Shown piece by piece: positions 18,432-56,064 of a stretch of DNA of 64,000 nucleotides; positions within the stretch are counted from its first letter, which is position 1; each line of letters begins with the position of its first letter. Below the pieces are notes generated by a model. That model did not search any database and was not told the origin of the DNA. It worked only from the letters and a program-made list of their open reading frames with translations. This DNA is from an uncultured Gammaproteobacteria bacterium (lineage in GTDB: Bacteria; Patescibacteriota; Patescibacteriia; UBA1558; S5-K13): the NCBI GenBank assembly GCA_964424195.1, contig CAYRHT010000001.1, positions 207,542 to 271,541 on the forward strand, written 5' to 3'. The position numbers were made by a program, and so were the translations under genes.

Positions 18432-21400
18432 ATGAAACGAGAGAAAAATACATCTGAGATTACTACTAAAGTAACTCAAAGAGTAGCAACTAAGACTAAA
18501 GTTTTAGTAGGTATGGTTATGGGTTTAGCGATAGTAGGAATGTTGGGGTTTGCTAGTATGGCTTTTGAAAATGTTAAAAAGTTTACTATAGAAGGTGATA
18601 TTCAAGTTCAGTCAGAGGAAAAGGGATATTTTGTAAATCAAGATATGGATCCTTATAGCAGCTTTGATAGTTCAGGTCAATATATGACGAACGGAAGTTT
18701 TAATGATAGAGAGGAAAAGGAATTGAATATTGAAGAAATTCAAAAGGCTTTAGAGAAAAAAGGAACATTATGGCAAGGAATTGAAAATAGAATTTTTAAA
18801 TTGAATAAAGAAAAAAGAGGAAACCTTTTAGGTTTACAAATAATAGAAGAAGAATTAAGAGAAGCTAAACAAAGAGAAAGAAATCAAGTAGGGTCGAGAG
18901 ATGGTGAATTGCCTGATTTTTTTGATTGGAGAGATTTGCATGGCGGTTTAGATTATACGACTCCTGTTAGAGATCAGGGAAGTTGTGGTTCTTGCTGGGC
19001 TTTTGGAGCTTTAGGAGCTTTAGAAGCTGGAATAGAAGCTTATTATAATAATCCTAATTTAAATATTGATTTATCTGAACAAGATTTAGTTTCTTGTTAT
19101 TTAGGAGACGGATGTTTTGGTGCTTATGCAAGTGAAGTCGAATCATTATTTAATAATTATTTTCAAGACATAGGAGTTGCTAATGAAAGTTGTTTTCCAT
19201 ATACAGCGACTAATAACGATTGTGAAAATAAATGTTCTGATTGGCAAAATGAAGCTTGGATTACTACCTCTTATGAAAATGTAGAATTGACAGTTGATGC
19301 TATAAAAACAGCTTTAATAGAGAACGGACCCTTAGAAGTTGGAATGGAAGTTTATGCTGATTTCCTTTCTTATAATAATGGAATATATCATCATGTTACT
19401 GGTGGTCTCTTAGGTTATCATGCGGTTTTAATTGTTGGTTTTGGTGTTTATGATGGAATGGATTACTGGATTGTTAAAAATTCTTGGGGAGAAGATTGGG
19501 GCGATAATGGATATTTTAAAATTTTAACAGGAGACTCAATGATAGATTCTTGGTTTGCTTATGGTATAAATATACCAGAACAATTAATAGGAGATAGTCC
19601 AGAAAGACTATGTGTAGATCAAGATGAAGATGGTTATTGTTATTGGGGTTTAGGTGATATGCCAAGTACTTGTTCTTCTACTTGTATTTTAGATATTTCG
19701 GATTGTAATGATGCTAATGGAGGAATGTTTGAAGATTGTGGGCAAAATACAGAAGTTATTGGATTTTTAAATATTATATCTGAACCGTCTGATGCTGAAG
19801 TTTATATTAAAGACTTAGATTCTAATAATTGGATTCATCGAGGGAATACACCTTTGGAGTTTAAATTAAATGTTGGAGAAAGAGAAATAAAAATTAGAAA
19901 ATTTGGGTACTTTGAATCAATTACAATTATAGATGTCGAAGAAGGGATGACTGATGAGCTATTTATAGAATTAGAACATGATTCTCAATTTCAAGAAGGA
20001 TGGCCAGTTCAAATAACTACTGCTTATCCCAATGAGTCTAGATATGGTGGAGCTTTTTCTGTTTCTGATTTAAATAATGATGGAGCTAAAGAAACAGTTG
20101 TTATTACAACTACGCATGATATTAATACTCCATACTATGCGGATTCAGTTTATGTTATTAATTCAAATGGTGAATTTATGCCAGGTTGGCCAAAAACTTT
20201 ACCTGAAGATGGTTATGTAAGAGAAAGTGCCACACTAGCAGATTTAGATGGTGATGGTGATAAAGAAATAATAATTTTAGCTAGATATGGTTTTAATAGT
20301 CCTAATTGGCCAAACAGTTATATTCAGATTTATAATCACGATGGTACAGATTTTCCTGGATGGCCAAGATTAATAAATCCATCTAATCAAGTAGTTAGGG
20401 TTAGTGTTGCGGATATTAATCTAGATGGAAATTTAGATATAATTGCTGGTTCAGGATCAAGTTATGGTACTGTAATATCTTGTGATTTTAATGAAGATTG
20501 TGAGCCTGCAGGTGTTTGTAATTATGGGTATTGTATGGATATTTATAGAGAAGTATATGCTTTTAACTATGATGGTACAAACTTAACTGGATGGCCAATT
20601 GAGTTTGAAATTCCATATATTCCAAGAAGTTCACCTGTCTTGACTAATTTGGATGATGATCCAGAACTAGAAGTTATTATAACTGCATTTCATTCAATTG
20701 ATAATCCAAATACTCAAACCCATTATGTTTATGCATTTAATCATGATAGTACTATTGTTGATGGTTTTCCTTATTCACTTGATAATTATTGGGGATGGAC
20801 TATAATCTCAGGAGATGTAAATAATGATGGACTTAATGAAATAGTTACACAAAAAGGACCTATAACAAATAATGGAGAAAGTATGTATTGGGAAAACACA
20901 TCCACTAAGATGTACTCAGTAAGTATGGCAAATGTTAACAACAACTACAACTTAGAAATATTATATGGAGATGCGGACGGTAAAGCTTATTTAGTTGATC
21001 ATGAAGGGAATAATTTAACTGGATGGCCAATTGATCAACCTGAAGATAATATATATGCAGACGGAACTCCTATTGTAGCAGACTTATTTGGGGATAATCA
21101 AAAAGAAATAATTATTTCTTGGTGGTCATATACTGGCGAGAAACCAGGTTTGTATGTTTATAATTTAGATGGAACTCTTGTTGAAGGATTTCCTAAATTT
21201 GAGGGATTGGTGTCTATATATTCGTCTATTGTAAATGATATAGACAATGATGGAGATTTAGAATTAATAGCAGTATCTAGTAATGGACAGGATATACTTG
21301 TTCTCGATTTAGATAAGGAATATGATCCTTTAACAATTGAATGGTCACAATTTCAACATGATGCTCAATATACTGGAAATTATAATTTTGAAAGATGTTC

Positions 21401-21575
21401 TAATGAAATAGCTTATGATCAATGTTTTTCTGAAAAACCATTATTTTGTAGTAATGGAGAATTGAGAGATAATTGTCAGGAATGTGGATGTCCAATAAAT
21501 GAATCTTGTCAGGAAGATGGAAGCTGTAGTTTAACTACTGTTCCTAAAGTAGAAACAACATCACATATTAAATAG
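18432..21575 (+). CDS. Large secreted/surface protein: papain-like (C1 family) cysteine peptidase domain followed by multiple FG-GAP/VCBS-type beta-propeller repeats and a Cys-rich C-terminus
   Basis: 1047 aa; N-terminal TM/signal segment. Catalytic Cys in QGSCGSCWAFGALGALE, His in GYHAVLIVGFG, Asn in VKNSWGEDWGDNGYF. At least six Dx[DN]xDGxxE(I/L) repeats (DLNNDGAKE, DLDGDGDKEII, DINLDGNLDII, DVNNDGLNEIV, DIDNDGDLELI). C-terminal CxxCGC cysteine cluster. Confidence 0.75.
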   Translation: MKREKNTSEITTKVTQRVATKTKVLVGMVMGLAIVGMLGFASMAFENVKKFTIEGDIQVQSEEKGYFVNQDMDPYSSFDSSGQYMTNGSFNDREEKELNIEEIQKALEKKGTLWQGIENRIFKLNKEKRGNLLGLQIIEEELREAKQRERNQVGSRDGELPDFFDWRDLHGGLDYTTPVRDQGSCGSCWAFGALGALEAGIEAYYNNPNLNIDLSEQDLVSCYLGDGCFGAYASEVESLFNNYFQDIGVANESCFPYTATNNDCENKCSDWQNEAWITTSYENVELTVDAIKTALIENGPLEVGMEVYADFLSYNNGIYHHVTGGLLGYHAVLIVGFGVYDGMDYWIVKNSWGEDWGDNGYFKILTGDSMIDSWFAYGINIPEQLIGDSPERLCVDQDEDGYCYWGLGDMPSTCSSTCILDISDCNDANGGMFEDCGQNTEVIGFLNIISEPSDAEVYIKDLDSNNWIHRGNTPLEFKLNVGEREIKIRKFGYFESITIIDVEEGMTDELFIELEHDSQFQEGWPVQITTAYPNESRYGGAFSVSDLNNDGAKETVVITTTHDINTPYYADSVYVINSNGEFMPGWPKTLPEDGYVRESATLADLDGDGDKEIIILARYGFNSPNWPNSYIQIYNHDGTDFPGWPRLINPSNQVVRVSVADINLDGNLDIIAGSGSSYGTVISCDFNEDCEPAGVCNYGYCMDIYREVYAFNYDGTNLTGWPIEFEIPYIPRSSPVLTNLDDDPELEVIITAFHSIDNPNTQTHYVYAFNHDSTIVDGFPYSLDNYWGWTIISGDVNNDGLNEIVTQKGPITNNGESMYWENTSTKMYSVSMANVNNNYNLEILYGDADGKAYLVDHEGNNLTGWPIDQPEDNIYADGTPIVADLFGDNQKEIIISWWSYTGEKPGLYVYNLDGTLVEGFPKFEGLVSIYSSIVNDIDNDGDLELIAVSSNGQDILVLDLDKEYDPLTIEWSQFQHDAQYTGNYNFERCSNEIAYDQCFSEKPLFCSNGELRDNCQECGCPINESCQEDGSCSLTTVPKVETTSHIK

Positions 21576-38618: not shown

Positions 38619-38695
38619 TTCGCGGTAGCTCAGTTGGTTAGAGCGACTGGCTGTTAACCAGTAGGTCGTCGGTTCGAACCCGACCCGCGAAGCCA
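38619..38695 (+). tRNA. tRNA-Asn (anticodon GUU), CCA encoded
   Basis: Acceptor TTCGCGG/CCGCGAA; D-arm GCTC..GAGC; anticodon stem ACTGG/CCAGT with loop CTGTTAA (GTT); T-arm GTCGG-TTCGAAC-CCGAC; discriminator G + CCA. The last 6 nt (AAGCCA) are also the first 6 nt of the 110-bp island repeat. Confidence 0.85.
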
Positions 38696-40165
38696 AATTG
38701 TTTTTTTAGCGGAAAGTGCCTCTTTTGCAGTCGCAAAAGTCGGCAACTCCCATAATATTTCCCAGGGTTTCTGGGGAATTACGCGGATTTCTCGTTCCTG
38801 CAATATGAGGTTCGAGCCAATCTTTTTAAGAAAATCTCTCTTCGTCGAGAGATTTTTTTGTGAAGCGATAATTTTGGCTTGTTTAGCGTCCAGAATGAAC
38901 TTCTTAGCCCGTTCGAGCCAATGATTGCCCTTTTGTTCAAAACCCTCTAATTTCTCCTCAATATCGATTTTTTCATTGAGGATTTTTTGTTTTTTAGAAG
39001 CATATTCTTCTTTAGAAATTAGTTCTTCTAAATGAGAATCTAATAATTTATCTAACTTATTTTCATAATTATATAATTTTTCTTTTAAGTTTTGAACGAA
39101 AGAATTTCCGTCTTGTTCTTCTTGCTTATTTTGTTTTTCCAATTCTTGGATTATCCAATCAGCACAAGACGGAAATAAAGAAACTTTTTGAATTATCTCA
39201 GATATTTGTTGACTCAAAATTTCTTCACGAATATATTTTTGAGAACACTTAATTTTTTTCTTAGTGCAACGATAATAATTATGTCCCTTTTGAGTCTCGG
39301 AAGTAATTGCACAACCACATTCTCCACATTTAAATAACCCTCTAAAAGCGTATTTTTTAATTTGCTTTTTCTTTGGTTTAGAATGTTGTGAAATTACTTC
39401 TTGGCATTTATCAAAAAGTTTCTTGGCAATCATTGGCTCATGACTACCTCTAAATATTTCGTTGTTATACCTAATCAATCCATAGTAAAAAGGATTTTTT
39501 AAAATATGCTGAATAGTAGAAACCGCTAGAGCTTTATTATGCTTACTTAATAATCCGACCGAGGTGATAGTATCCCGCAAAAATTTAATAGTATAATTTC
39601 CAGTAGAGTAGAGTTTAAATATTTTTCTAACTAAATTAAATTTTTGCGGGTCTTTAATAATATTATGTTTTCTTAAATCATTAAGATAACCAATCGGAGC
39701 AGGTCCAGGAAGTTCACCTCGTCTTAATTTTTGCCTTAAACCTCGTTTAGTATTTTCAGAAAGATTGTCAACGAAATATTTAGATTGACCAAAAGCGATA
39801 TTTAACATGAATTTGCCTTGCGGAGTAGCTTCAAACCAGAAAGTAGGAAATTTTAGCGACTTAATTTCTTCACTATCAACTAAATAGATGATTTTACCAC
39901 CATCGACTGAATTACGAGCTAATCTGTCAGGATGCCACGCTAAAATTCCATTAGCTTTATTCTTTTCAATTTTATCTAACATATTATTGAATATTGGACG
40001 ACCTGGTTTTTTAGCAGTTTGAGATTCAATAAAAATATCAATAATATTTAGATTTTCTTTTTCGGCAAATTCTAAAAGTTCAGTTTTCTGAGCTTCTAAA
40101 GATAATACTTGTCGATCATCTTCATCAGTTGATTTTCTAATATAAAGGAAGTATTTATTATCCAT
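38654..40165 (-). CDS. Large serine recombinase (resolvase/invertase N-domain + recombinase domain + zinc ribbon + coiled coil)
   Basis: 503 aa from ATG at 40165: MDNKYFLYIRKSTDEDDRQVLSLEAQ (catalytic Ser region); DRLARN; recombinase domain; zinc ribbon CGECGCA...YYRC...C; C-terminal coiled coil. The ORF track extends it 60 aa upstream (to 40345) through the inverted repeat, which is read-through. The last 13 codons are encoded by the complement of the tRNA-Asn 3-prime end. Confidence 0.85.
   Translation of the reverse strand: MDNKYFLYIRKSTDEDDRQVLSLEAQKTELLEFAEKENLNIIDIFIESQTAKKPGRPIFNNMLDKIEKNKANGILAWHPDRLARNSVDGGKIIYLVDSEEIKSLKFPTFWFEATPQGKFMLNIAFGQSKYFVDNLSENTKRGLRQKLRRGELPGPAPIGYLNDLRKHNIIKDPQKFNLVRKIFKLYSTGNYTIKFLRDTITSVGLLSKHNKALAVSTIQHILKNPFYYGLIRYNNEIFRGSHEPMIAKKLFDKCQEVISQHSKPKKKQIKKYAFRGLFKCGECGCAITSETQKGHNYYRCTKKKIKCSQKYIREEILSQQISEIIQKVSLFPSCADWIIQELEKQNKQEEQDGNSFVQNLKEKLYNYENKLDKLLDSHLEELISKEEYASKKQKILNEKIDIEEKLEGFEQKGNHWLERAKKFILDAKQAKIIASQKNLSTKRDFLKKIGSNLILQEREIRVIPQKPWEILWELPTFATAKEALSAKKTIWLRGSGSNRRPTG
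38690..38799. repeat. 110-bp inverted repeat, left copy, flanking the serine recombinase gene
   Basis: Identical to the reverse complement of 40262-40371, confirmed by direct comparison. Contains internal palindromes CTTTTGC-agtc-GCAAAAG and CCCAG-ggtttc-TGGGG. Starts with AAGCCA, shared with the tRNA-Asn 3-prime end. Confidence 0.85.
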
Positions 40166-40261
40166 ATATTTAAAATTAATTTTTATCGCTTTTGGTCTGT
40201 ATTTGTAAATTACCGCTTCACCTTTGCTAGTAAGCAAAGAAAAATATTGGCTCTCAATAGA

Positions 40262-40371
40262 AGGAACGAGAAATCCGCGTAATTCCCCAGAAACCCTGGG
40301 AAATATTATGGGAGTTGCCGACTTTTGCGACTGCAAAAGAGGCACTTTCCGCTAAAAAAACAATTTGGCTT
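40262..40371. repeat. 110-bp inverted repeat, right copy
   Basis: Perfect reverse complement of 38690-38799. Its outer 6 nt (TGGCTT, the complement of AAGCCA) overlap the outer end of the large GC-rich repeat. Confidence 0.85.
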
Positions 40372-40820: not shown

Positions 40821-41045
40821 ATGTCAAACAAATTATCAACTATTGCTAAAAACATCAAAAAGCTCAGAAAAGAAAAAGGTATCTCTCAAGATAAACTTTC
40901 TAAATTAGCTAATATTTCTTATAACACAATTATTAAGATTGAATCTGGAGATATTCAAAGTCCAGGTATTGATACTGCTCAAAAAATAGCTCAGGCTTTT
41001 GGTGTTAAAATTGATGATTTAATAAGTGAAAAGTATAAAAAATAA
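40821..41045 (+). CDS. XRE-family helix-turn-helix transcriptional regulator
   Basis: 74 aa; IKKLRKEKGISQDKLSKLANISYNTIIKIESGD is a canonical Cro/C1-type HTH; first gene of the cassette. Confidence 0.7.
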   Translation: MSNKLSTIAKNIKKLRKEKGISQDKLSKLANISYNTIIKIESGDIQSPGIDTAQKIAQAFGVKIDDLISEKYKK

Positions 41046-41065: not shown

Positions 41066-44000
41066 ATGAATAGTGACTTAACTTTTATAACCAATGAAAA
41101 TGGTAAAAATTTAAAAGATAGATTTGATGATTTGATAAAAGATTCTCGTTTTTTTGATGTTTTGGTTGGTTATTTTTATACAAGTGGTTTTTATGCAATT
41201 TATCCTAGTTTAGAAAAAACTGAAAAAATTAAAATCTTAATTGGAATTAGTACTAATTATCAAACATATAATCTTCTTCAAAAAATTCAATCACATAAGG
41301 AAATAGGAGATCAGATTGGTGAGAATATAAAAACTGAGATGGAAAAAAGTGATAATAATTTTCAAGTAGAAAAAGGTGTATATAAATTTCTCGAATGGTT
41401 AAAAAGTGGAAAATTAGAAATTAAAGCTTATCCTGAAGAAAAAATACATTCTAAATTATACATAATGACTTTTAATGAAGATGATAGAGATATCGGTCGT
41501 GTAATAACTGGATCAAGTAATTTTACACAAAGCGGATTAGTGGATAATTTAGAATTTAATGTTGAGCTTAAAGATCCTTCTGATTATAGATTTGCCAAGG
41601 ATAAATTTGATGAATTATGGGGAAAGGGTATTGATGTTAGTGAGAAATATATTGAAACAATTACAAGAGATACGTGGCTTAGAGAAGATATAACGCCGTA
41701 TGAATTATATCTTAAATTTCTTTATGAATATTTTAAAGAAGAAATAAATGAAGAAGACATTTTAGAGCATAGTTATAGACCAGACAATTTTAAAGAATTA
41801 AAATATCAAGATCATGCAGTTATAAATGCAAAAAAAATTGTAGAAGAATATGGTGGTGTATTTTTGTCAGATGTTGTTGGTTTAGGAAAAACATACATGG
41901 GAACTATGCTTTGTCAAGAATTAAAAGGGAGGACTTTAGTATTAGCCCCTCCTCATCTTATTGATGAAAATAATGAAGGTAGTTGGGAAAATTCTTTTAA
42001 AAATTTTGGATTCCGCGCTAAAGATTATAAATGTGAATCTATTGGGGTGTTGGACAAAATAATAAAAAAAGAACTTCATAAAAAATTTGATATTGTTCTT
42101 ATTGATGAAGCTCATCGTTTTAGGACAGAAGAAACGGAAACATATGCAAAACTTGCTCAAATTTGTCGTGGTAAAAAAGTAATTCTTGTTACAGCTACTC
42201 CGTATAATAATTCACCAAAAGATCTGCTTTCTCAAATCAAACTTTTTCAAAAAGCAAGACAAAGTACAATACCAAACCTATTAAATATAGAAGGATTCTT
42301 TAAAAAATTAGAAGGAAATATTAAAAAACTTGATAGAAGAAAAGATAAAACAGAGTATCTCGAAAGAACAAAAGAAAATTCTAAACTTATTCGTGAAAAA
42401 TTATTAAAATATTTAATGGTAAGAAGAACGCGAAAAGAAATTCAAAAATACTATGGAGATGACTTGAAAAAACAAAAAATGAGCTTTCCTGAAATTGCAG
42501 ACCCAAAACCAATTCTTTATGAATTTAATGAGAAAGAAAATGAAATCTTTTTTAAAACTATAAAAATAATATCAAAAGATTTTAAATATTCTCGTTATAC
42601 ACCCTTTTTATATCATAAAGGAGATTTGGGTTCTGAAGAAACTAGACAAAAGAATATGAGAAAGTTCATGAAGATGATGCTTATTAAAAGATTAGAAAGT
42701 AGTTTTTTTGCATTTACGCAGTCACTAGACCGATTTATATCGTCTTATGAAAAATTTATAAGTGAATATAATACAGGTAGCGTATATGTAAGTAAAAAAC
42801 ATATACGAAAAATATTTGATTATCTAGATGGTGGTAATTTAAATGCTGTAGATCAATTAATTTCTGAAGGAAAGGCAGAAAAATTTTCTAGTGATGAATT
42901 TGGAACTAATGAGGCTGGTGTCGAATTTATAGATGCTTTGAAGAATGACCTAATCATCCTAAAAGATATTAAAGAATTATGGAAGGGAATGAAGAGAGAT
43001 CCTAAAATTATTGCTTTTAAAGAGAAATTAGCAAAAGAAAAGCCAATAAAAGAAGGAAAATCTATTGTTTTTACAGAATCAACAGAAACTGCAAAATATC
43101 TTATAGAGAATTTACAAGATATTTTTCCAAATCAAATTATTTATTTTTCCGGAGGAAGCTCACAAGCGGAACGAGAAATTGTCATGGAAAATTTTGATGC
43201 TAACACAAAAAATATCAAAAATGATTATAAACTACTTATTACAACCGATGTATTAGCAGAAGGAGCCAATTTACATCAAGCAAATGTTGTCATAAATTAT
43301 GACATTCCATGGAATCCAACTCGTATAATGCAAAGAGTTGGTCGTATAAATAGAGTTGATACAAAACATGATAAAATTTACACTTATTCTTTTTTTCCAA
43401 CAGATCAATCAGATGAACAAATAAAATTGATATCATTAGCAGAGGCAAAAATACAAGCATTTATCACTTTGCTTGGAACTGATGCAAAGCTATTAACAGA
43501 GGGAGAAGTTCCTGAAGGGCATAGTTTATTTAATCGAATATTATCAAAAGAGATGATTGAAGGTGAAGAAAGTGAAGGAGATTCTGAATTAAAATATTTA
43601 CAAGAAATTAGAAAAATAAGAGACAAGGATCCAGACTTATTTGAAAAAATAAAAAAATTACCTAAAAAAGCACGGACTGCTCGAAAATTGCAGGAAGGTA
43701 AATCAAAGCTATTAACTTATTTTAGAAAAGGAAAATTACAAAAATTTTTCATTATCGACGCTGGAGCATCATCTATTTCTAATGAAATTGATTTTATGAA
43801 AGCGGCAGAACAATTCACAGCAAAACCAAGCGAAAAACGATTCAAATTAGATAAGTTATTTTATGGATTACTTGATAAAAATTTAGAAATGTTACAGAAA
43901 GTGGATGAGTATGAAGAAGAGGAATTTTCTACTAAACGAGGAAGCAGAAATAATGCGGCTCGTCTTTCTAAGATTTTAAACGCAAAGAATATAAAAAAAT

Positions 44001-44266
44001 ATAAAGGATTTACCGATGATAATGAAGCATATATTCAATCTGTAATTAACGAATTGGATTCTGGGGGTATTCCTAAAAAGATAACGCAAACAATTTATAA
44101 AAAAGTCCAAAATACTCCTGAAATAATCGCAAATCCTTTAAAACTTTTAGCTGTGTTGAAAACAACATTGCCAAATGATTTTCTTCAACCAACTCAAAAT
44201 GAAATAGACAAGGGAATATCTAGGAAAAAAGAAATTATACTTTCTGAATATTTTAACAGAAAATAA
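41066..44266 (+). CDS. PLD-family (HKD) nuclease fused to SNF2/SF2 helicase (DrmC-DrmD-like fusion)
   Basis: 1066 aa. N-terminal HKD motif HSKLYIMTFNEDDRDIGRVITGSSNFT. Helicase motif I VVGLGKTYMG, motif II VLIDEAHRFR, motif III ILVTATPYNN, and C-terminal helicase lobe motifs (LITTDVLAEGANLHQANVVINYDIPWNPTRIMQRVGRINR). Confidence 0.8.
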   Translation: MNSDLTFITNENGKNLKDRFDDLIKDSRFFDVLVGYFYTSGFYAIYPSLEKTEKIKILIGISTNYQTYNLLQKIQSHKEIGDQIGENIKTEMEKSDNNFQVEKGVYKFLEWLKSGKLEIKAYPEEKIHSKLYIMTFNEDDRDIGRVITGSSNFTQSGLVDNLEFNVELKDPSDYRFAKDKFDELWGKGIDVSEKYIETITRDTWLREDITPYELYLKFLYEYFKEEINEEDILEHSYRPDNFKELKYQDHAVINAKKIVEEYGGVFLSDVVGLGKTYMGTMLCQELKGRTLVLAPPHLIDENNEGSWENSFKNFGFRAKDYKCESIGVLDKIIKKELHKKFDIVLIDEAHRFRTEETETYAKLAQICRGKKVILVTATPYNNSPKDLLSQIKLFQKARQSTIPNLLNIEGFFKKLEGNIKKLDRRKDKTEYLERTKENSKLIREKLLKYLMVRRTRKEIQKYYGDDLKKQKMSFPEIADPKPILYEFNEKENEIFFKTIKIISKDFKYSRYTPFLYHKGDLGSEETRQKNMRKFMKMMLIKRLESSFFAFTQSLDRFISSYEKFISEYNTGSVYVSKKHIRKIFDYLDGGNLNAVDQLISEGKAEKFSSDEFGTNEAGVEFIDALKNDLIILKDIKELWKGMKRDPKIIAFKEKLAKEKPIKEGKSIVFTESTETAKYLIENLQDIFPNQIIYFSGGSSQAEREIVMENFDANTKNIKNDYKLLITTDVLAEGANLHQANVVINYDIPWNPTRIMQRVGRINRVDTKHDKIYTYSFFPTDQSDEQIKLISLAEAKIQAFITLLGTDAKLLTEGEVPEGHSLFNRILSKEMIEGEESEGDSELKYLQEIRKIRDKDPDLFEKIKKLPKKARTARKLQEGKSKLLTYFRKGKLQKFFIIDAGASSISNEIDFMKAAEQFTAKPSEKRFKLDKLFYGLLDKNLEMLQKVDEYEEEEFSTKRGSRNNAARLSKILNAKNIKKYKGFTDDNEAYIQSVINELDSGGIPKKITQTIYKKVQNTPEIIANPLKLLAVLKTTLPNDFLQPTQNEIDKGISRKKEIILSEYFNRK

Positions 44267-44268
44267 TT

Positions 44269-47200
44269 ATGAATAAACAAGAAGCAAAAAATCTCATTGA
44301 AAATACTTTTAGCAGTGATTTTGATGCAGATAAATATCAAAAGTTTGTAGTAAATCTTTTCAAAAAATATTCTGAAAGTAATTCTTCTCCTACAATAAAA
44401 AATGCTTATCAAGCTTTCATAACTAAATACACAATAATCGGAACTTTTGAAGATAGTGAAAACAATAAGATAGATATCTTGGAAGTTCATCTAAGTAAAG
44501 AATCAACATTAGAACGAGCTAGAACAGCTCAAAGAAACTTTGTAGCAGAATATCTTAAATCAAGAAACAAGGAAGCCGCTTTAGTTGCTTTCATTTCACC
44601 TAATAATAAGGAGTGGCGATTATCTTTTGTAAAATTAGAGCACACATTAGAAGTAATTGACAAAAAAATAAAAGCAAAAGAAGAAATAACTCTTGCTAAA
44701 AGATGGTCATTTTTAGTAGGAGAATACGAAGGGAGTCATACTGCACAAAGTAGATTCGTGAATTTATTGATGAGTGATAAAGAACCAAATTTAGCAGAGT
44801 TTGAAGTAGCTTTTGATATAGAAATAGTTACAAAAGAATTTTTTAAAAAATACACGGAGTTATTTTTTCAATTTAAAGAAAAACTTGATGAATTGTTAGA
44901 AAAAGATGAAATAATAAAAAAAGATTTTAAAGAAAAAGAAATTTCAACAGTTGATTTTGCTAAAAAAACTCTGGGACAAATTGTTTTTTTATATTTTTTA
45001 CAAAAAAAAGGATGGTTTGGCGTTCCTGCTGATAAAAAATGGGGAGAGGGTCCTAAGAAATTTATAAGAGTATTATTTGAACGACGGGAAAAATATGGTA
45101 GTAATTTTTTTAATGATATTTTAGAACCATTATTTTATGAAGCTCTTGCTCAAGATCGTGGTAAGGAATCGATTTATCCACGATTAAATAATTGTAGGAT
45201 GCCATTTTTAAACGGTGGACTTTTTGAGCCAATGAATGATTATAAATGGGAAACAACTGACATTATAATTCCAGATGAACTTTTTTCAAATAATATAAAG
45301 ACTAAGGAAGGTGATATTGGGACTGGTATTTTAGATGTATTTGATAGATATAATTTTACTGTGAATGAAAATGAGCCATTAGAAAAAGAAGTTGCAGTTG
45401 ATCCTGAAATGTTAGGTAAAGTTTTTGAAAATCTTCTTGACATAAAAGACAGAAAAAGTAAGGGAGCATTTTACACCCCTCGTGAAATTGTTCATTATAT
45501 GTGTCAAGAAAGTCTTATTAATTATCTTGAAACCGAAACTAAAAATAAAATACTACGAGAAGATCTGGAATTTCTTATTCACAAAGGGGATAGAATAATT
45601 GAAAATGATAAGGTGTCTTTAGAAAAAACAAAAGGAGGTAAATATCCAAATGAGTATTATAAAATATTTACACCTGATTCAATTATAGCAAATGTAATAT
45701 TGCTTAATGAATTATTAAAAAATATAAAAGTAGCTGATCCAGCCGTTGGTTCAGGAGCTTTTCCATTAGGAATGATTAATGAGATTGTTCGAGCTAGAAA
45801 AGTTTTGAATATTTATCTTAATGAAGATGTTTCTGATTATGAATTAAAAAAACATGCTATAACTCACTCTATTTATGGAGTTGATATTGATTCTGGAGCG
45901 GTGGATATTGCTAAACTTCGTCTTTGGTTAGCGCTAGTTGTGGATGAAGATACTCCTCATCCCCTTCCTAATCTTGAACATAAAATAATGCAAGGAAATA
46001 GTTTAATTTCTGAATATGAAGGAATAAAATTATTTGATGATTCTATTTTAGATGATGCTCGAATTATTAAAGACGGAAAAGATGTAACTGATGAAAAAAT
46101 TTCTTTGTTACAAAAAGAATATTTTAATCTTCATGCCAATAAACAGTTAACTGCTACCAAGGAAATAGAGATAAAAAAAGAGATTAAATCACTTCAACGA
46201 AAATCAAAAGATTTTGTTAATAAATTAGAAGTATTTAAAGGAAATGCTAGTATTTTTGATGTTCCAGAAAAAAGGAAGATTGCTCAAGAGAAGACTGTTC
46301 TTTTGCAAAGAAAAATTAAGGAATATATTTCTGAATCACGAAGAAGTCAAAAACAAAATCTTAAGGAAGAAATTGATAATTTAAAATGGGATCTTATTGA
46401 AGTTTCTTTGGAAGAGCAAAATAAATTAGATGAAAAAAAATTAAAGAAGATTCGAGATTATAAAAAATCAAATACAAAACCTTTTTTTATTTGGAAATTG
46501 GAATTTAGTGATGTTTTTAAGAAAAAAGGTGGCTTTGATATTGTGATTGGAAATCCACCATATGTAAGTGTTAAGAAGATTTCCATAGATAATAAAAAAC
46601 TCTTTTCTGAATTATTTGAGACTGGAAAAGGTAGATTTAATCTTTTTACTTTGTTTTTAGAAAAAGGACAAAAGTTATTAAAATCCGATGGCGTTTTAAG
46701 TTATATTTTACCAGAAGTATTGTACACAAATTCAGAATATAGATATATTAGAAAATACTTATTAGAGAAGACACAAATACTTTCTATTTCCAATTTTTCC
46801 TCGCGTGTCTTTGAGGCTTCTGTAGATACGTCCGTCATAGTCATAAAAAATGGGTACAATCAAAAATCTAAAATAAAAGTATTATTAGACCTGTCTTCAG
46901 TTATCACAACAATTAAACAAGCTGAAATTAACGACATCATCTTAACTAAAAACCCCGATAGTGTTAAGTCTATTTTAGACAAAATAAACTTAGGAAAGGA
47001 CAGGCTATCTAATATTATTGAAGTACAACAAGGTATAATATACTCTGGTCAAAAAAAAGAAGATGTATTTTCTAATAAAAAATTCGATAGCACATATAAA
47101 AAAATATTAGATGGTAGGGATATAAGTAAATACTCAATTAATTATAATTTTAAAAAAGAAAACAGGTACATTAAATATACAAGACAATTACATAGACCAA

Positions 47201-47655
47201 GAGAAGAAAGACTGTTTTTAGCAGAAGAGAAAATAATTTTTCCTAGAAGAAGTATGTTTTTCATGTGCACTATCGATTTCAAACAGTTTTATCTTTTGAA
47301 TACAGCGTATATTTGCTTATTAACAAATTCTAAGTATTCTTTAAAATATATTTTAGGTATTCTTAATTCCAAAGTTGTAAATTTTTTATATTCAAAAACT
47401 TATATTGGTTGGCAGATTACGATTCCAGCCATAAATGCATTACCTATTCCTGAAATTACGCCTAATGAGCAAAAACCCTTTATCGATCTCGTAGATCAAA
47501 TTTTAGAAATTACTTCTCAAGAAAATTATGATTTCAAAAACTCACCAATTCAGCAAAGGGAACTAGAAAAGAAAATAGATGAAATGGTTTATGAATTATA
47601 TGGATTAACTAAAGAAGAGATTGGGGTTATTGAAGAGAGTTTTAATAAAGTATAA
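44269..47655 (+). CDS. N6-adenine DNA methyltransferase, gamma-class, PglX/Eco57I/type IIG-like (large)
   Basis: 1128 aa; motif X/I GAFYTPREIVHYM and ADPAVGSGAFPLGM; motif IV VIGNPPYV; PFLNGGLFEP and LPNLEHKIMQGNSLI blocks typical of BREX PglX / DISARM DrmMI / Eco57I-like enzymes; C-terminal target-recognition-like region. Confidence 0.8.
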   Translation: MNKQEAKNLIENTFSSDFDADKYQKFVVNLFKKYSESNSSPTIKNAYQAFITKYTIIGTFEDSENNKIDILEVHLSKESTLERARTAQRNFVAEYLKSRNKEAALVAFISPNNKEWRLSFVKLEHTLEVIDKKIKAKEEITLAKRWSFLVGEYEGSHTAQSRFVNLLMSDKEPNLAEFEVAFDIEIVTKEFFKKYTELFFQFKEKLDELLEKDEIIKKDFKEKEISTVDFAKKTLGQIVFLYFLQKKGWFGVPADKKWGEGPKKFIRVLFERREKYGSNFFNDILEPLFYEALAQDRGKESIYPRLNNCRMPFLNGGLFEPMNDYKWETTDIIIPDELFSNNIKTKEGDIGTGILDVFDRYNFTVNENEPLEKEVAVDPEMLGKVFENLLDIKDRKSKGAFYTPREIVHYMCQESLINYLETETKNKILREDLEFLIHKGDRIIENDKVSLEKTKGGKYPNEYYKIFTPDSIIANVILLNELLKNIKVADPAVGSGAFPLGMINEIVRARKVLNIYLNEDVSDYELKKHAITHSIYGVDIDSGAVDIAKLRLWLALVVDEDTPHPLPNLEHKIMQGNSLISEYEGIKLFDDSILDDARIIKDGKDVTDEKISLLQKEYFNLHANKQLTATKEIEIKKEIKSLQRKSKDFVNKLEVFKGNASIFDVPEKRKIAQEKTVLLQRKIKEYISESRRSQKQNLKEEIDNLKWDLIEVSLEEQNKLDEKKLKKIRDYKKSNTKPFFIWKLEFSDVFKKKGGFDIVIGNPPYVSVKKISIDNKKLFSELFETGKGRFNLFTLFLEKGQKLLKSDGVLSYILPEVLYTNSEYRYIRKYLLEKTQILSISNFSSRVFEASVDTSVIVIKNGYNQKSKIKVLLDLSSVITTIKQAEINDIILTKNPDSVKSILDKINLGKDRLSNIIEVQQGIIYSGQKKEDVFSNKKFDSTYKKILDGRDISKYSINYNFKKENRYIKYTRQLHRPREERLFLAEEKIIFPRRSMFFMCTIDFKQFYLLNTAYICLLTNSKYSLKYILGILNSKVVNFLYSKTYIGWQITIPAINALPIPEITPNEQKPFIDLVDQILEITSQENYDFKNSPIQQRELEKKIDEMVYELYGLTKEEIGVIEESFNKV

Positions 47656-47669
47656 TCTATAAAAGTATT

Positions 47670-48809
47670 ATGGAAAAAAATAAACAACAAAATAGCTCAC
47701 GTCCTAATCAAAAGACAGCAATAAAACTTTTAATTGCTTCTGGCGGTCGTTGTTCTTTTAACGGTTGTAATGAATATTTATTAAAAGATAATTTAACTCT
47801 TCGTGAATATAATGCTAGTAACATTGCTCATATTGTTGCTTTAAAAAAGAATGGTCCTAGAGGAGACAGTAAATTAACAATAAATGAAAGAAATGAAATT
47901 GATAATTTAATGTTAGTTTGTCGAAAACATCATTGTTTGATTGATAATAAAAGTTTAGTTAAAAAATATCCTGTTAATTTATTAAAAAAATATAAAAGAG
48001 AGCATGAAAATAGAATTTTTAGATTAACTGGACTATCTCCAGAGAGAAAAACAAAAGTAATTATTTTTAAGTTTAAAATTGGTAACGATTTGGTTAAAAT
48101 TTCTAATGAAGATATTTATGAGGCAATTCATCCTTATTATCCAGTGGATAATAGTGTAGAGATTGATTGTACTATTGGTGACTTGGGAACAAAAAAATAT
48201 TATGAATGTATTGTAGAGCATATTAAAACAAAAGTAGATAATTTTAATAATTTTGAAAATGTTAAGCACGTTTCCGTTTTTGCTTTAGCTCCTATTCCTT
48301 TGCTTATATATCTTGGTAATTGTTTAAGTAATAAAGTAAAACTAGAATTATTTCAAAGACATAGAACTGTTCCCGAGACATGGAAATGGAAAACACGGCA
48401 GAAGGTTAGTAATTTTGAATTTAAACAAGTAAACAAAAATAAAAATAAAAATGAAGTGGGTTTAATACTTGAACTTAGTGGTTCTGTTAACTTAGATACA
48501 ATTCCAAGAAAAATTATAAATAATTTACCTGTTTATAAAATAACATTAAAAAATGAAGAATTAACACCAACGTTTTTAAAATCTAGAAAAACTTTAAATA
48601 ATTTTAAGGAGGTTTATCAATCTGCATTAAGAAAAATAAGTCAAGGGGGAAAAACGAAAAAAATTCATTTATTTCCAGCTGTGCCAGCACCCATTGCAGT
48701 ATTGCTTGGAAGAGAAGTGTTAAAAAAAATTGATCCCGATATTCTAGTATACGATAATAATAAACAAAAAGGGGGATTTTATCCCGTATTAACAATAAAA
48801 AATAAATAA
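47670..48809 (+). CDS. HNH endonuclease fused to a C-terminal sensor-like domain (possibly SAVED-like; Cap5-like architecture)
   Basis: 379 aa; N-terminal HNH (CSFNGC ... AHIVAL ... NLMLVCRKHHC). The C-terminal roughly 250 aa has an alpha/beta character with VSVFALAPIPLLIYLG and IHLFPAVPAPIAVLLG motifs. Similarity to SAVED is an impression, not a demonstrated match. Confidence 0.55.
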   Translation: MEKNKQQNSSRPNQKTAIKLLIASGGRCSFNGCNEYLLKDNLTLREYNASNIAHIVALKKNGPRGDSKLTINERNEIDNLMLVCRKHHCLIDNKSLVKKYPVNLLKKYKREHENRIFRLTGLSPERKTKVIIFKFKIGNDLVKISNEDIYEAIHPYYPVDNSVEIDCTIGDLGTKKYYECIVEHIKTKVDNFNNFENVKHVSVFALAPIPLLIYLGNCLSNKVKLELFQRHRTVPETWKWKTRQKVSNFEFKQVNKNKNKNEVGLILELSGSVNLDTIPRKIINNLPVYKITLKNEELTPTFLKSRKTLNNFKEVYQSALRKISQGGKTKKIHLFPAVPAPIAVLLGREVLKKIDPDILVYDNNKQKGGFYPVLTIKNK

Positions 48810-48810
48810 T

Positions 48811-50142
48811 ATGAAAATTAATGATTTTTTGAATGATATAATTTCGAGTCAAGATATAAAAAAAGATGATGAAGAAATAAAAAAATTACAAGATGAAAGA
48901 GAAAAGGTACAAACTCTTGTGAATGATTCTTATGGTGATACAAAGAAAATGATTAGATATGGTGGTTCTTATGCTAAAGATACAATGATAAGGGATAGTT
49001 TTGATTTAGATATTCTTTGTTATTTTCATGCAGATGAAACAACGGCTGGTAACACTTTAGAAGAAATTTATGATAATCTAAAGGAAGTTCTTTCAGAAGA
49101 ATATTATATAGATCCTAAAAGATCCGCTATTAGGTTAAAAAATAAAGATGATGAAGTTGATTTTCATATCGATTTTGTGCCAGGAAGATTTGTTGAGGGA
49201 AAAGAAGGTGATGCTTTTCTATATCAAAAGGGAGCTGAGAAAGATCGTCTTAAAACAAATCCAGACAAACATATTAAATACATAAAGGAAAGTCAGTTAA
49301 CAGATATAATAAAATTAATTAAAATATGGAAATGTATTTACAATATTGATTTAAAAACTTTTATTCTGGAATTGTTAATTGTTAAAATCTTAAAAGATAG
49401 TAAGAAAAAGTCAATTTCAGAAAAATTAGAAATATTTTTTACAAAAATAAAAGACGAAGTTGGAAATATGACAATTGAAGATCCTGCTAATTCTAATAAT
49501 GATTTATCAGAACTATTTGATCAAAAAATTAGAGATACTTTAAAACAATACGCTCAGACAGCTATAGATAATATTGAAGAAGAGGATTGGTTGGGAGTAT
49601 TTGATAATAAATTTGAAATTGATGATGAAACGGAAGAAAGTGATGACAATAAATCTTTGGCTTTAATGGATATATCTCATTGTCAACAACCAAAATGGTT
49701 AATATCTGAATCTCCTTGTAGTGTAGAAATAAGATGTTTTATTAAAGATAAAAACGGCGAGGATAGAGAGGAACTTAAGTCAGATGATAAAAATATAGTA
49801 GATGATTTGATATTAGAATATAGGGCTGAAGTTTCTAATTGTTTTGATGATTACGATATTTATTGGCAAGTGGTGAATACTGGGTATCACGCTGAAAGAG
49901 ATGATGGATTAAGAGGGGAGTTTTTTAAGGGTAAGGATTTAGTCGGAGATTTAACTGAAGATCAGAGGTTGAATTATGAGTTTAGCATGTATAGAGGGAA
50001 ACATTGGATAGAATGTTTTATTGTTAGGGATAATAATTTATTAGCTAGGAGTGGTCGTTTTTATGTGAATATTTTACCAACTTTTAAAAAACCTAGAATA
50101 AAGAAACGTAATAGCATTCCTTATTATAGACGTAAATATTAA
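48811..50142 (+). CDS. CD-NTase/SMODS-like minimal nucleotidyltransferase with a C-terminal extension of unknown function
   Basis: 443 aa; pol-beta NTase signature GGSYAKDTMIRDSFDLDI (GS...DxD); third acidic residue in FHIDFVP (h[DE]hhP); helical NTase-associated region with the IKIWK motif; roughly 160-aa Cys-containing C-terminal domain with no recognisable homolog. Confidence 0.55.
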   Translation: MKINDFLNDIISSQDIKKDDEEIKKLQDEREKVQTLVNDSYGDTKKMIRYGGSYAKDTMIRDSFDLDILCYFHADETTAGNTLEEIYDNLKEVLSEEYYIDPKRSAIRLKNKDDEVDFHIDFVPGRFVEGKEGDAFLYQKGAEKDRLKTNPDKHIKYIKESQLTDIIKLIKIWKCIYNIDLKTFILELLIVKILKDSKKKSISEKLEIFFTKIKDEVGNMTIEDPANSNNDLSELFDQKIRDTLKQYAQTAIDNIEEEDWLGVFDNKFEIDDETEESDDNKSLALMDISHCQQPKWLISESPCSVEIRCFIKDKNGEDREELKSDDKNIVDDLILEYRAEVSNCFDDYDIYWQVVNTGYHAERDDGLRGEFFKGKDLVGDLTEDQRLNYEFSMYRGKHWIECFIVRDNNLLARSGRFYVNILPTFKKPRIKKRNSIPYYRRKY

Positions 50143-50443: not shown

Positions 50444-50450
50444 ACCATTA

Positions 50451-50480
50451 AATAGAGCCTAAAGCTCTATTTTTTGTTTT
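50451..50480 (+). terminator. Rho-independent terminator at the right island boundary (putative original tRNA-Asn terminator)
   Basis: AATAGAGC-ctaaa-GCTCTATT followed by TTTTTGTTTTTTT. Confidence 0.55.
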
Positions 50481-50624: not shown

Positions 50625-51035
50625 ATGAAAGCTAATCTTTCTTTGTATGTTGGTTGTGCTTTGACACATGCTCCTGAAGAGTTTAAACAAAATGTGCAAA
50701 CTCTGAAGGATAGACTAAAAGAAGTTTGTAATGTTCTAGAGTTTGTTGGTTTAACCAATGGTACTAACAATGACGTCTATAACCACGATATTAATGTTTG
50801 TGTTCGTGGTTGTGATCTTTTCGTTGCTATTTGTGATATGCCTTCAATCGGTCTGGGTTATGAATTAGGAACTCAAGTTGAAGACCGTAAAATGCCAGCA
50901 TTAGCCGTTGCTCAGGCGGATCCAATAGTAACTCGTTTGGTTTTAGGAATTCTTAAGCCACATTATAAATTCCAGAGATATAAGGATTTTGATGATCTTT
51001 ATAATATAATCATCAAGAAACTTGAAACACTTTGA
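50625..51035 (+). CDS. Nucleoside 2-deoxyribosyltransferase-like (NDT fold) protein
   Basis: 136 aa; SD AAGGAGG before the ATG; LYVGCAL...; C-terminal block DMPSIGLGYELGTQVEDRKMPALAV resembles the NDT-family D.G..fE.G.A...gKPv motif; terminator hairpin at about 51046-51080. Confidence 0.45.
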   Translation: MKANLSLYVGCALTHAPEEFKQNVQTLKDRLKEVCNVLEFVGLTNGTNNDVYNHDINVCVRGCDLFVAICDMPSIGLGYELGTQVEDRKMPALAVAQADPIVTRLVLGILKPHYKFQRYKDFDDLYNIIIKKLETL

Positions 51036-55173: not shown

Positions 55174-56064
55174 ATGTCATCAGCAAACAGTGCTAAGATT
55201 ACTTTCTTTTATTTATTATCACTATTTAGTTTAGCTTTCGCAGCTATTTCTAGTGGAATGATCTTATTTCAAGTGATTAATAAATTAATTCCAGATGCAC
55301 TTAATTATAGTGGTCGATTTTCAGCAGAGGCTTTAAGATTTGGTATCTCAGCTGTAATTGTAGCTACTCCTGTGTATTATTGGATGACTTCCTTAATTCA
55401 AAAGAGTTTGAAAAAAGGGGAGTTAGATAAGGAGTCTCAATTAAGAAAGTGGATGACTTATATTATTATTTTAGTTTCCGCAATCGTAATTATTGTCTCT
55501 TTAATTGGAGTTATTAATAATTATTTAAGTGGTGATTTGACTAGTAAAATTGCTTTAAAAGTATTAACCACTATTATAATCTCCGGAGTTGTTCTTTCTT
55601 ACTATCTATACAATATTAAAAGAGAGAACTTTGAAAAAGAAACAGTAGTTAAGACATATTTCTGGTCTTCATTGGTTTTAGTATTAGTAATACTAGTTTC
55701 TGGATTTTTAGTAGCTGATTCTCCAGCTCAAGTTAGAAAGATTAAACATGATCGTAACATCATTAATGATTTAAATAGTATTAAATATCAAATTGAAAAT
55801 TACACTAGGAATTATGGAAAATTACCAGAAGATTTGAAAGATTTAAATATGCTTAAAATTGACTATTTTGAAAGAGATGGAGAGGTTACAGATTTTGAGT
55901 ATAAAGTTTTAGAGGATAATGAATACGAAATTTGTGCTGAATTTGAAACCAATAGTGAAGAAATGGATGATTTGTATGGTAATCAAAGAGAATGGCCTCA
56001 TAAAATTGGGAAAGAATGTTTTCAAAGAACTGTAAATTTAATAGACATTCAATTAAAAAATTAA
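55174..56064 (+). CDS. Polytopic membrane protein with C-terminal type-IV-pilin/GspG-like periplasmic domain, inserted between rplK and rplA
   Basis: 296 aa; about 6 TM helices in the N-terminal 190 aa. The C-terminal segment RKIKHDRNIINDLNSIKYQIENYTRNYGKLPEDLKDL resembles the helix/loop of pseudopilins (..DL..L..AL..Y..dnG.yP..L..L). Confidence 0.5.
   Translation: MSSANSAKITFFYLLSLFSLAFAAISSGMILFQVINKLIPDALNYSGRFSAEALRFGISAVIVATPVYYWMTSLIQKSLKKGELDKESQLRKWMTYIIILVSAIVIIVSLIGVINNYLSGDLTSKIALKVLTTIIISGVVLSYYLYNIKRENFEKETVVKTYFWSSLVLVLVILVSGFLVADSPAQVRKIKHDRNIINDLNSIKYQIENYTRNYGKLPEDLKDLNMLKIDYFERDGEVTDFEYKVLEDNEYEICAEFETNSEEMDDLYGNQREWPHKIGKECFQRTVNLIDIQLKN

Follow-up and report, generated by a model that had tools for sequence, protein, structure and literature searches.

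Can two adjacent genes, one for a DNA methyltransferase and the other for a nuclease fused to a helicase-like motor, form a restriction-modification (R-M) system on their own, and if they do, which of the two proteins cuts? This question is raised by a locus in contig CAYRHT010000001.1 (assembly GCA_964424195.1) of an uncultured bacterium, labelled Gammaproteobacteria and placed by GTDB in the Patescibacteriota, from which we analysed a stretch of 64,000 nucleotides, hereafter the window (positions 207,542 to 271,541 of the forward strand). Gene A encodes an HKD nuclease-Swi2/Snf2 ATPase fusion, and gene B, whose ATG lies 2 nt behind the TAA stop codon of A on the same strand, encodes a methyltransferase that carries its own target-recognition domain (TRD). 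A preliminary description, drawn from the sequence alone, had placed a fusion of a phospholipase D (PLD) nuclease and an SNF2 helicase beside a methyltransferase at 41066-47655; both open reading frames (ORFs) are found there, with Pfam support. We consider it probable that A and B together constitute a two-subunit, ATP-dependent R-M system, in which B would mark and read the DNA while A would translocate along it and cut.

Conservation of the gene pair

Our survey took one genome per species and comprised 600 pattern-matched stretches, 80 loci being kept for the study of synteny. At least 563 of the 600 stretches encode a relative of A, and these relatives span Patescibacteria, Proteobacteria, Bdellovibrionota, Chloroflexota, Nitrospirota, Bacteroidota, Omnitrophota, Planctomycetota and others. 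An ortholog of B lies downstream of A on the same strand in 72 of the 75 informative loci: it is directly adjacent and carries the N-terminal domain in 50 (median gap 14 nt), and it follows an insertion of 0.1-2.1 kb in 22. A truncated or variant B was found in two further loci and no B within 1.46 kb in one, while in five the contig ends too early. Sampling by way of N-terminal fragments of B gave the same picture, with A or remnants of A upstream in all four loci. The pairing of A and B is thus far beyond chance, and the conserved couple that the preliminary description proposed to look for in public genomes does exist.

Clustering of 807 neighbouring ORFs from 82 loci revealed no third conserved gene; a large serine recombinase comes up most often, in 10 of the 82, and neither DrmA/DrmB, PglZ/BrxC, a YprA-type helicase nor a DUF499 partner recurs in the 80 related loci, which come from very different phyla. 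The lack of a recurrent third gene indicates a self-contained and mobile module, in keeping with the two-component logic suggested at the outset for a pair without DISARM or BREX partners.

Defence genes tend to cluster, and in the window the pair is followed immediately by genes of a cyclic oligonucleotide-based antiphage signalling system (CBASS), which raises the question of whether A and B are neighbours by association only. Gene A would then be an independent Type IV-like enzyme (modification-dependent, as SauUSI), or the pair a decayed remnant of a larger system. SauUSI, which has the same PLD-helicase layout, is indeed among the top structural matches of A. We nevertheless regard this explanation as very unlikely, because the synteny with B persists in surroundings that are otherwise unrelated, CBASS is not conserved beside the pair elsewhere, hundreds of species have the two genes intact and their motifs invariant, and Pfam detects no DUF3427/SRA-like reader domain in A.

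Gene A, a nuclease fused to a motor

The N-terminal part of A matches PLDc_2 (4.9e-10) and RE_NgoFVII (1.1e-7) in Pfam over aa 45-185, and only one H-x-K is paired with a GSxN, which makes a single HKD motif per chain. H128, K130, D142, G149, S150, S151 and N152 are shared by all of 61 homologs, and with them the HxK...GSxN signature of the PLD/HKD superfamily with its conserved His, Lys and Asn. The active site of enzymes such as Nuc and BfiI needs two HKD motifs, which are provided by a dimer; with one motif per chain, cleavage by A is therefore predicted to depend on dimerisation or collision. PDB sequence searches with the HKD domain returned nothing useful.

The HKD domain is followed by a Swi2/Snf2-type ATPase core of superfamily 2 (SF2), with matches to ResIII, SNF2-rel_dom and Helicase_C between aa 243 and 764, the SF2 motifs I, II, III and VI all in place (Table 1), and a SNF2-type fold. 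In Foldseek searches the AlphaFold2 model of A (predicted local distance difference test score, pLDDT, 78) is nearest to RapA (9e-15), then to SauUSI (7CLG, 7e-14), and then to Chd1, CSB and ZorD, the matches to RapA, Chd1 and CSB all having E<=1e-12. The top PADLOC model is 'C3a139 HKD+Snf2' (7e-52), with DrmD next (6e-34) and further matches to PLD_Helicase, HmaA, BrxHI/BrxHII and DpdE, while the NCBIfam matches are all far under their cut-offs (142 bits against 610 for DISARM_DrmD, 147 against 1100 for phospholipD_antiphage). The preliminary description had viewed the locus as built from DISARM parts; the motor is RapA/DrmD-like, and the HKD domain is of the NgoFVII/BfiI type rather than demonstrably derived from DrmC.

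Behind a disordered linker (aa 782-838), the C-terminal domain of A is folded in the model, with pLDDT values mostly of 83-91. It has neither a Pfam family nor a PDB sequence match, and might be a candidate contact surface for B. Homologs of A number in the thousands; they are full-length (~1061 aa), 60-97% identical, and come from many sources. Gene A is predicted to encode the restriction and translocase subunit, and the invariance of H128, K130, N152 and the ATPase motifs favours the earlier suggestion that cleavage would come from the HKD nuclease of this protein, coupled to its translocase.

Gene B, a methyltransferase with a variable specificity domain

PADLOC assigns B to its Type IIG model REase_MTase_IIG (PDLC03596), which covers the protein end to end (7e-201), with lower scores for DrmMI (4e-32) and PglX (6e-26). 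The protein, labelled 'PglX-like' earlier, thus scores best against a Type IIG model and not against PglX or DrmMI. A gamma-class N6-adenine methyltransferase and a TRD in one polypeptide, as in Type IIG enzymes, are both present. The Eco57I, N6_Mtase and MmeI_Mtase matches span aa 479-879; motifs X, I and IV occur in gamma-class order and are intact, and the PDB sequence matches near NPPY are CamA, M.TaqI and PglX/BrxX. The methyltransferase domain is interrupted at aa ~590-745 by a variable, lysine- and glutamate-rich insert, conserved to ~10% only, which we take to be a coiled coil. Farther on, TaqI_C is matched at aa 945-1060. The helical spacer that precedes the methyltransferase has weak Pfam matches to MmeI_hel (E 0.14) and N6_Mtase (E 0.01), and is similar to the helices that precede the methylase of MmeI and HsdM.

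Conservation along B is very uneven. Residues 81-440 are 55-79% identical to those of 51 orthologs, with the helical spacer in the most conserved part of the protein, and the N-terminal half as a whole is better conserved than the catalytic domain. The TRD, by contrast, shows only 15-30% identity among orthologs and is replaced in many loci, where tblastn matches end near aa 860. A specificity subunit that docks to a conserved partner would be expected to show just this combination of a conserved N-terminal half with a divergent, often swapped TRD.

Does B cut DNA?

A Type IIG enzyme has an N-terminal PD-(D/E)XK nuclease with a D...(D/E)XK motif, and the preliminary description had noticed none in B. 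This observation extends beyond the window: the (D/E)XK motif is absent from the N-terminal domain in all of 142 diverse representatives (38-76% identity). Pfam finds no family in aa 1-230, a profile of 97 sequences of the N-terminal region has no match among PDB sequences, and Foldseek returns nothing at E<=1e-3; no solved structure, that of a nuclease included, is matched at a significant level. An exhaustive hidden Markov model search recovered the domain in 2689 clusters (50% identity); apart from a few fragments, the best 150 of these are full-length proteins (~900-1350 aa) that carry it at their N-terminus.

Two candidate motifs were considered and rejected. In the B of the window, D61/D62...E72-V-H74 could be read as a PD-(D/E)XK motif, yet column 72 is I, V or A in other members, column 74 is variable and column 75 is Leu. 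In a homolog encoded on a Parabacteroides plasmid, 'YEVKH' looks like a catalytic motif, yet the position of its lysine is occupied by K or R equally often in 65 relatives, so that it is not a canonical catalytic lysine and gives no sign of an ancestral active nuclease.

What is conserved in the 142 representatives is a different set of residues: R85, R89, W116, R117, S119, R145, S147, G151 and T158 are invariant, and D69, N90, E154 and H157 nearly so. The signature R..[WY]RxS..RxS..G..T is common to the window-type and Parabacteroides-type subfamilies of the domain. The N-terminal domain is thus no canonical restriction nuclease, and it may instead serve in coupling or in clamping of the DNA.

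It could still be argued that B is an autonomous Type IIG enzyme with an atypical N-terminal nuclease, and that A is an auxiliary, for example a processive degrader of cut DNA or a means of widening the target range. The Type IIG model spanning B from end to end speaks for this, as do the invariant polar residues of the N-terminal domain together with E154, H157 and D69, and Cj0031, a solitary enzyme that one paper counts as homologous to such methylases, gives 5- to 1000-fold restriction of phage (PMC4889913). We find this interpretation unlikely, given that both the (D/E)XK motif and the distant 'EVK' fail as described above, and that an autonomous enzyme would hardly be expected to remain tied, across phyla, to a gene that encodes a second, intact nuclease. 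Since PADLOC-type and REBASE-derived models label B and other members of its family as single-protein Type IIG enzymes, the evidence that the cutting activity is located in the neighbouring gene also bears on automated annotation.

Comparison with known systems

In comparing the A-B pair with Type IIG, DISARM, BREX, ARMADA, Type-2 BREX-related, Type ISP and SauUSI-type systems, we found that each membership fails on at least one of the defining features tested. A close parallel in logic is Type ISP (LlaGI, LlaBIII), in which a nuclease, an SF2 motor, a coupler, a gamma-class N6-adenine methylase and a TRD, all in one chain, carry out ATP-dependent modification and restriction, with translocation away from the site and cleavage on collision. 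The A-B pair has the same order of functions, nuclease-motor followed by coupler-methylase-TRD, and is predicted to follow the same ATP-dependent logic; it would therefore work as a Type ISP enzyme in two pieces, or as a Type I/III enzyme, with an HKD nuclease. It differs in that the chain is divided into two genes between motor and methylase, and in that the nuclease of A is of the HKD/PLD and not the Mrr/PD-(D/E)XK kind and its motor is Swi2/Snf2, RapA-like. Neither in sequence nor in structure does the N-terminal domain of B significantly match a Type ISP coupler.

SauUSI and the N proteins of CglI and NgoAVII share with A a PLD-family nuclease followed by an SF2 ATPase, and their restriction is ATP-dependent, as is predicted for A. 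SauUSI has a C-terminal reader of modified bases and no methylase partner, and CglI and NgoAVII rely on a C5 methylase and on a separate R protein whose DNA-binding domain is B3-like. Gene A has a cognate methylase next to it and lacks the C-terminal DUF3427/SRA-like reader that marks Type IV enzymes of the SauUSI kind. Type IIG enzymes (MmeI, BpuSI, Eco57I, DrdV, Cj0031) share with B the whole layout of N-terminal domain, helical spacer, Eco57I/MmeI-type gamma methylase and TRD; B differs from them in having no PD-(D/E)XK triad and no significant similarity to Type IIG nuclease domains, and in being adjoined, on genomic evidence, by an HKD-Snf2 gene in 72 of 75 loci; a Type IIG enzyme acts alone.

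Adjacent genes for a RapA-like helicase and a large gamma-class N6-adenine methylase are also known from DrmD+DrmMI of DISARM class 1, ArmA+ArmB of ARMADA and BrxHII+PglX of BREX type 3. A pair of a RapA/BrxHII-like helicase and a PglX-like methylase is common to these three systems, always together with further essential genes (10.1101/2025.09.15.676423). Those pairs never act alone and their helicases carry no nuclease, whereas in A an HKD nuclease is fused to the helicase. The additional components are absent from our loci: DrmA, DrmB (DUF1998) and DrmC of DISARM class 1 occur neither in the scanned ORFs of the window nor as recurrent genes in 82 loci, and the same applies, for the window and for recurrent neighbours, to the PglZ phosphatase and BrxC ATPase of BREX and to ArmC (YprA family) of ARMADA, with ArmD in its type II.

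Fusions of an HKD domain to an SF2 helicase have been proposed as restriction effectors in PbeA and in the 'Type-2 BREX-related' systems, which need DUF499 and DUF3780 (PMC10853773, PMC12839542). In these effectors, as in A, the HKD endonuclease comes first in the chain and the SF2/Snf2 helicase follows, but their systems require either a DUF499 ATPase with DUF3780, alongside the helicase and a methylase, or a CxC ABC ATPase with DndE, none of which recurs beside A and B. The scan of the window and the clustering of neighbours brought up neither the DUF499 ATPase nor DUF3780, the loci not having been scanned with individual profiles for these two.

These likenesses give substance to another explanation, namely that the pair is a minimal BREX- or DISARM-like system in which B marks self and A is not recruited by B but senses unmodified or incoming DNA or blocks replication, perhaps with abortive infection as the outcome. 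The motor of A is most similar to DrmD, BrxHII, DpdE and RapA-type helicases, B matches the PglX and DrmMI models, and the homologous pair in BREX, DISARM and ARMADA acts without simple restriction by cutting at a site (10.1101/2025.09.15.676423). We judge such a mode of action improbable, to much the same degree as an autonomous B, because the essential extras (PglZ/BrxC, DrmABC, ArmC) are missing here and from the 80 related loci, because the invariant HKD residues argue for DNA cutting, and because the N-terminal half of B, being more conserved than the catalytic domain, fits a protein-protein interface with A.

In the literature, the gene pair is mentioned only in passing, and we found no paper that defines or tests a stand-alone two-gene system. 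Milman et al. described two loci in which a 'Type II R-M CDS homologous to Cj0031' lies beside a coding sequence with PLD and SNF domains, and in which the methylase gene undergoes programmed inversions (PMC9881135). A candidate relative of the pair is present in Prevotella intermedia 17F, where genes annotated as Type IIG are located downstream of an SNF2/RAD54 helicase and one of the enzymes, Pin17FIII, makes N6-methyladenine at GGYGAB (PMC5608340).

A model for the A-B system

From the sequence features given above we infer that the pair carries out restriction. In the mechanism that we propose, the TaqI_C-type domain of B would read a short DNA motif and the gamma-class domain would methylate an adenine within it, so that the host DNA is marked as self. 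On an unmethylated site, B would instead recruit or license A, the contact being made likely through the conserved N-terminal domain and helical spacer of B. The Swi2/Snf2 motor, akin to those of RapA, DrmD and BrxHII, would then move on double-stranded DNA driven by ATP, and cleavage would take place when two HKD domains meet and complete an active site.

Several points weigh against this proposal. The invariant polar set in the N-terminal domain of B (four Arg, two Ser and a Thr, with the nearly invariant Glu and His) might form a catalytic site that has escaped recognition, in which case B might cut alone. Swi2/Snf2 motors can remodel or displace proteins instead of delivering a nuclease. 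Moreover, the helicase-methylase pairs of BREX, DISARM and ARMADA require further proteins for defence, and the protection given by ARMADA II is lost on deletion of any of its four genes (10.1101/2025.09.15.676423).

A bolder proposal would make A and B the representatives of a distinct and widespread class, a split Type ISP-like machine with a single HKD motif per chain that cuts only when two motors meet or dimerise, and with a hitherto undescribed, non-nuclease N-terminal domain in B that couples site recognition to the motor. We advance it tentatively, with slightly less than even confidence. If it were true, thousands of 'Type IIG' calls in databases would be mis-assigned, and the helicase-methylase pair of BREX-3, DISARM-I and ARMADA would have a free-living two-protein relative. 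The role of a Swi2/Snf2 helicase and a PglX-like methylase in those three systems is poorly understood, and the A-B pair would offer a minimal system with a built-in nuclease. The family occurs in many uncultivated phyla, including the small-genome lineage of the window, which makes it relevant to the interpretation of methylomes and to the building of genetic tools.

Traits of restriction-modification operons

In ~22 of 75 loci, A and B are separated by one or two unrelated small genes (L012, L014, L016, L019, L025, L026, L028, L029, L032, L037, L040, L044, L045, L051-L053, L065, L068, L072, L073 and L080; also L090 and L091). Judged by eye from their N-terminal sequences, these inserts include ORF6N/KilA-N/Bro-N, RhuM, Fic, an AbiEii-type nucleotidyltransferase pair, NYN and HicB, while a Schlafen/AlbA_2-type gene of ~450 aa and a PIN/DUF2281 toxin-antitoxin pair are supported by Pfam. 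This is the repertoire of hitch-hikers that lodge inside Type I R-M operons.

In a minority of loci a small gene for a DNA-binding protein lies directly upstream of A. The proteins are of three kinds that are not related (HTH_3, HTH_17, RHH), and such genes also accompany the pair-related loci L085, L087 and L090. Their position recalls that of the controller (C) proteins of R-M systems. The upstream helix-turn-helix (HTH) gene of the window type has a homolog in 3 of 84 loci only and is therefore not a core part of the system; its 74-aa HTH_3 product in the window is a candidate C-protein-like controller of an accessory nature.

Three of the loci found through fragments of B (L088, L089, L090) are decayed, with A and B broken into many short ORFs. 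Such copies suggest either frequent pseudogenisation or assembly errors in long-read contigs.

Distant relatives

Plasmid records contain HKD-Snf2 relatives at 24-35% identity, from both bacteria and archaea. The same arrangement as in the window is found on a Parabacteroides distasonis plasmid (NZ_OY725763.1, locus L085), where the HKD-Snf2 protein (1082 aa) is 31% identical to A and the Eco57I-type methylase (1133 aa) 24% identical to B over its full length. Between 5204 and 16886 this plasmid encodes, in order, an HTH protein, a Schlafen/AlbA_2 protein, HKD-Snf2, the methylase, a hypothetical protein, a TIR-domain protein, another hypothetical protein and an AAA protein, so that the pair looks like part of a larger defence cluster.

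The HKD-Snf2 gene of Thermus oshimai is preceded by genes for an Eco57I-type methylase and for a hypothetical protein. On the Lactococcus lactis plasmid pUL021B (L087, 6785-16610), Pfam finds no PLD domain in a related Snf2 helicase; behind it are encoded a DUF4391 protein, a beta-class N6/N4 methylase, another methylase and a DEAD/DEAH helicase, a different helicase-methylase arrangement that may represent another R-M-like type. The nuclease-motor thus partners with different methylases, which fits the logic of a restriction subunit.

The surrounding island

Table 1. Features of genes A and B and of the adjoining island, in window coordinates. Residues named for gene A motifs I (Walker A), II, III and VI are invariant in 61 homologs.
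Feature	Position	Strand	Details
tRNA-Asn	38619-38695	+	overlaps 3' end of serine recombinase gene
Large serine recombinase	38654-40345	-	Resolvase, Recombinase, Zn_ribbon_recom domains
XRE/HTH_3 DNA-binding protein	40821..41045	+	74 aa; HTH_3 1.8e-17; ends 20 nt 5' of gene A; called as gene in source contigs
Gene A, HKD nuclease-Swi2/Snf2 ATPase fusion	41066-44266	+	1066 aa; ORF call, Pfam, PADLOC
A, N-terminal PLD/HKD endonuclease domain	41066..41665	+	aa 1 to ~200; Pfam
A, HKD motif H128-S-K130	41447-41455	+
A, HKD motif G149-S-S-N152	41510-41521	+
A, Swi2/Snf2-type SF2 ATPase core	41798..43405	+	aa ~245-780; ResIII, SNF2-rel_dom, Helicase_C
A, Walker A GLGKT	41879-41893	+	G272, G274, K275, T276
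A, motif II DEAH	42104-42115	+	D347, E348, H350
A, motif III TATP	42191-42202	+	T378
A, motif VI QRVGRINR	43331-43354	+	Q756, R757, G759, R760
A, C-terminal domain, mixed beta-sheet and helices	43583..44263	+	aa ~840-1066, ~230 aa; AlphaFold2 model
Gene B, methyltransferase-specificity subunit	44269-47655	+	1128 aa; ORF call, Pfam, PADLOC
B, N-terminal alpha/beta domain, without annotation	44269..44838	+	aa 1 to ~190
B, helical spacer	44839..45408	+	aa ~191-380; contains FLYFLQKKGWFG
B, gamma-class N6-adenine methyltransferase domain	45409..46908	+	Eco57I 6.5e-33, N6_Mtase 2.8e-18, MmeI_Mtase 1.4e-7
B, motif X GAFYTPREIV	45463-45492	+
B, motif I DPAVGSGAF	45736-45762	+
B, motif IV NPPY	46552-46563	+
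B, TRD	46909..47652	+	aa ~881-1128; TaqI_C 4.1e-19
SAVED-fused endonuclease (Cap4-like) gene	47670-48809	+	PADLOC Effector 2e-119
CD-NTase with AGS_C domain	48811-50142	+	Pfam/PADLOC

The window has a GC content of 30% and a chromosomal look, with genes for an ATP synthase alpha/beta-family subunit, pheT, gyrB, groEL, pyk, dnaG and rpoD, and the defence island is located between rpoD and a PadR/beta-propeller pair. Together with a source contig of ~0.95 Mb, the DUF5671 proteins and the papain-family peptidase described below, the low GC content suggests a small-genome, Patescibacteria-like organism. The tRNA-Asn and the serine recombinase gene probably form one edge of a mobile island of ~12 kb; a search for an att-like direct repeat of the tRNA-Asn end gave no convincing one. 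The two CBASS genes lie directly 3' of B, with gaps of 14 nt and then 1 nt. The sole plus-strand terminator-like hairpin of the island lies at 50450-50472, and its position, weak evidence as it is, suggests that A, B and the two CBASS genes may share one transcript. At the distal end of the island, a 136-aa ORF (50625-51035, plus strand) has a match to nucleoside 2-deoxyribosyltransferase below the cut-off (E 0.0025) and none in PADLOC; it may be a further defence-related gene, or unrelated.

Within the window we scanned all ORFs longer than 500 aa and, in the island, the smaller ones as well. No relative of DrmA, DrmB, PglZ, BrxC, a YprA-type helicase or DUF499 is among them, the remaining scanned ORFs being housekeeping genes, the serine recombinase, the CBASS pair and the beta-propeller protein. 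Elsewhere in the window, a 1349-aa AddA-like protein (6010-10059, plus strand) combines a UvrD/PcrA-type helicase with a C-terminal PD-(D/E)XK nuclease and is split by an intein (Intein_splicing and Hint, aa 271-637) between the helicase halves. Positions 18432-21575 encode a peptidase of the papain family (1047 aa) that has PEGA and FG-GAP repeats, and positions 55174-56064 a DUF5671 membrane protein, both on the plus strand.

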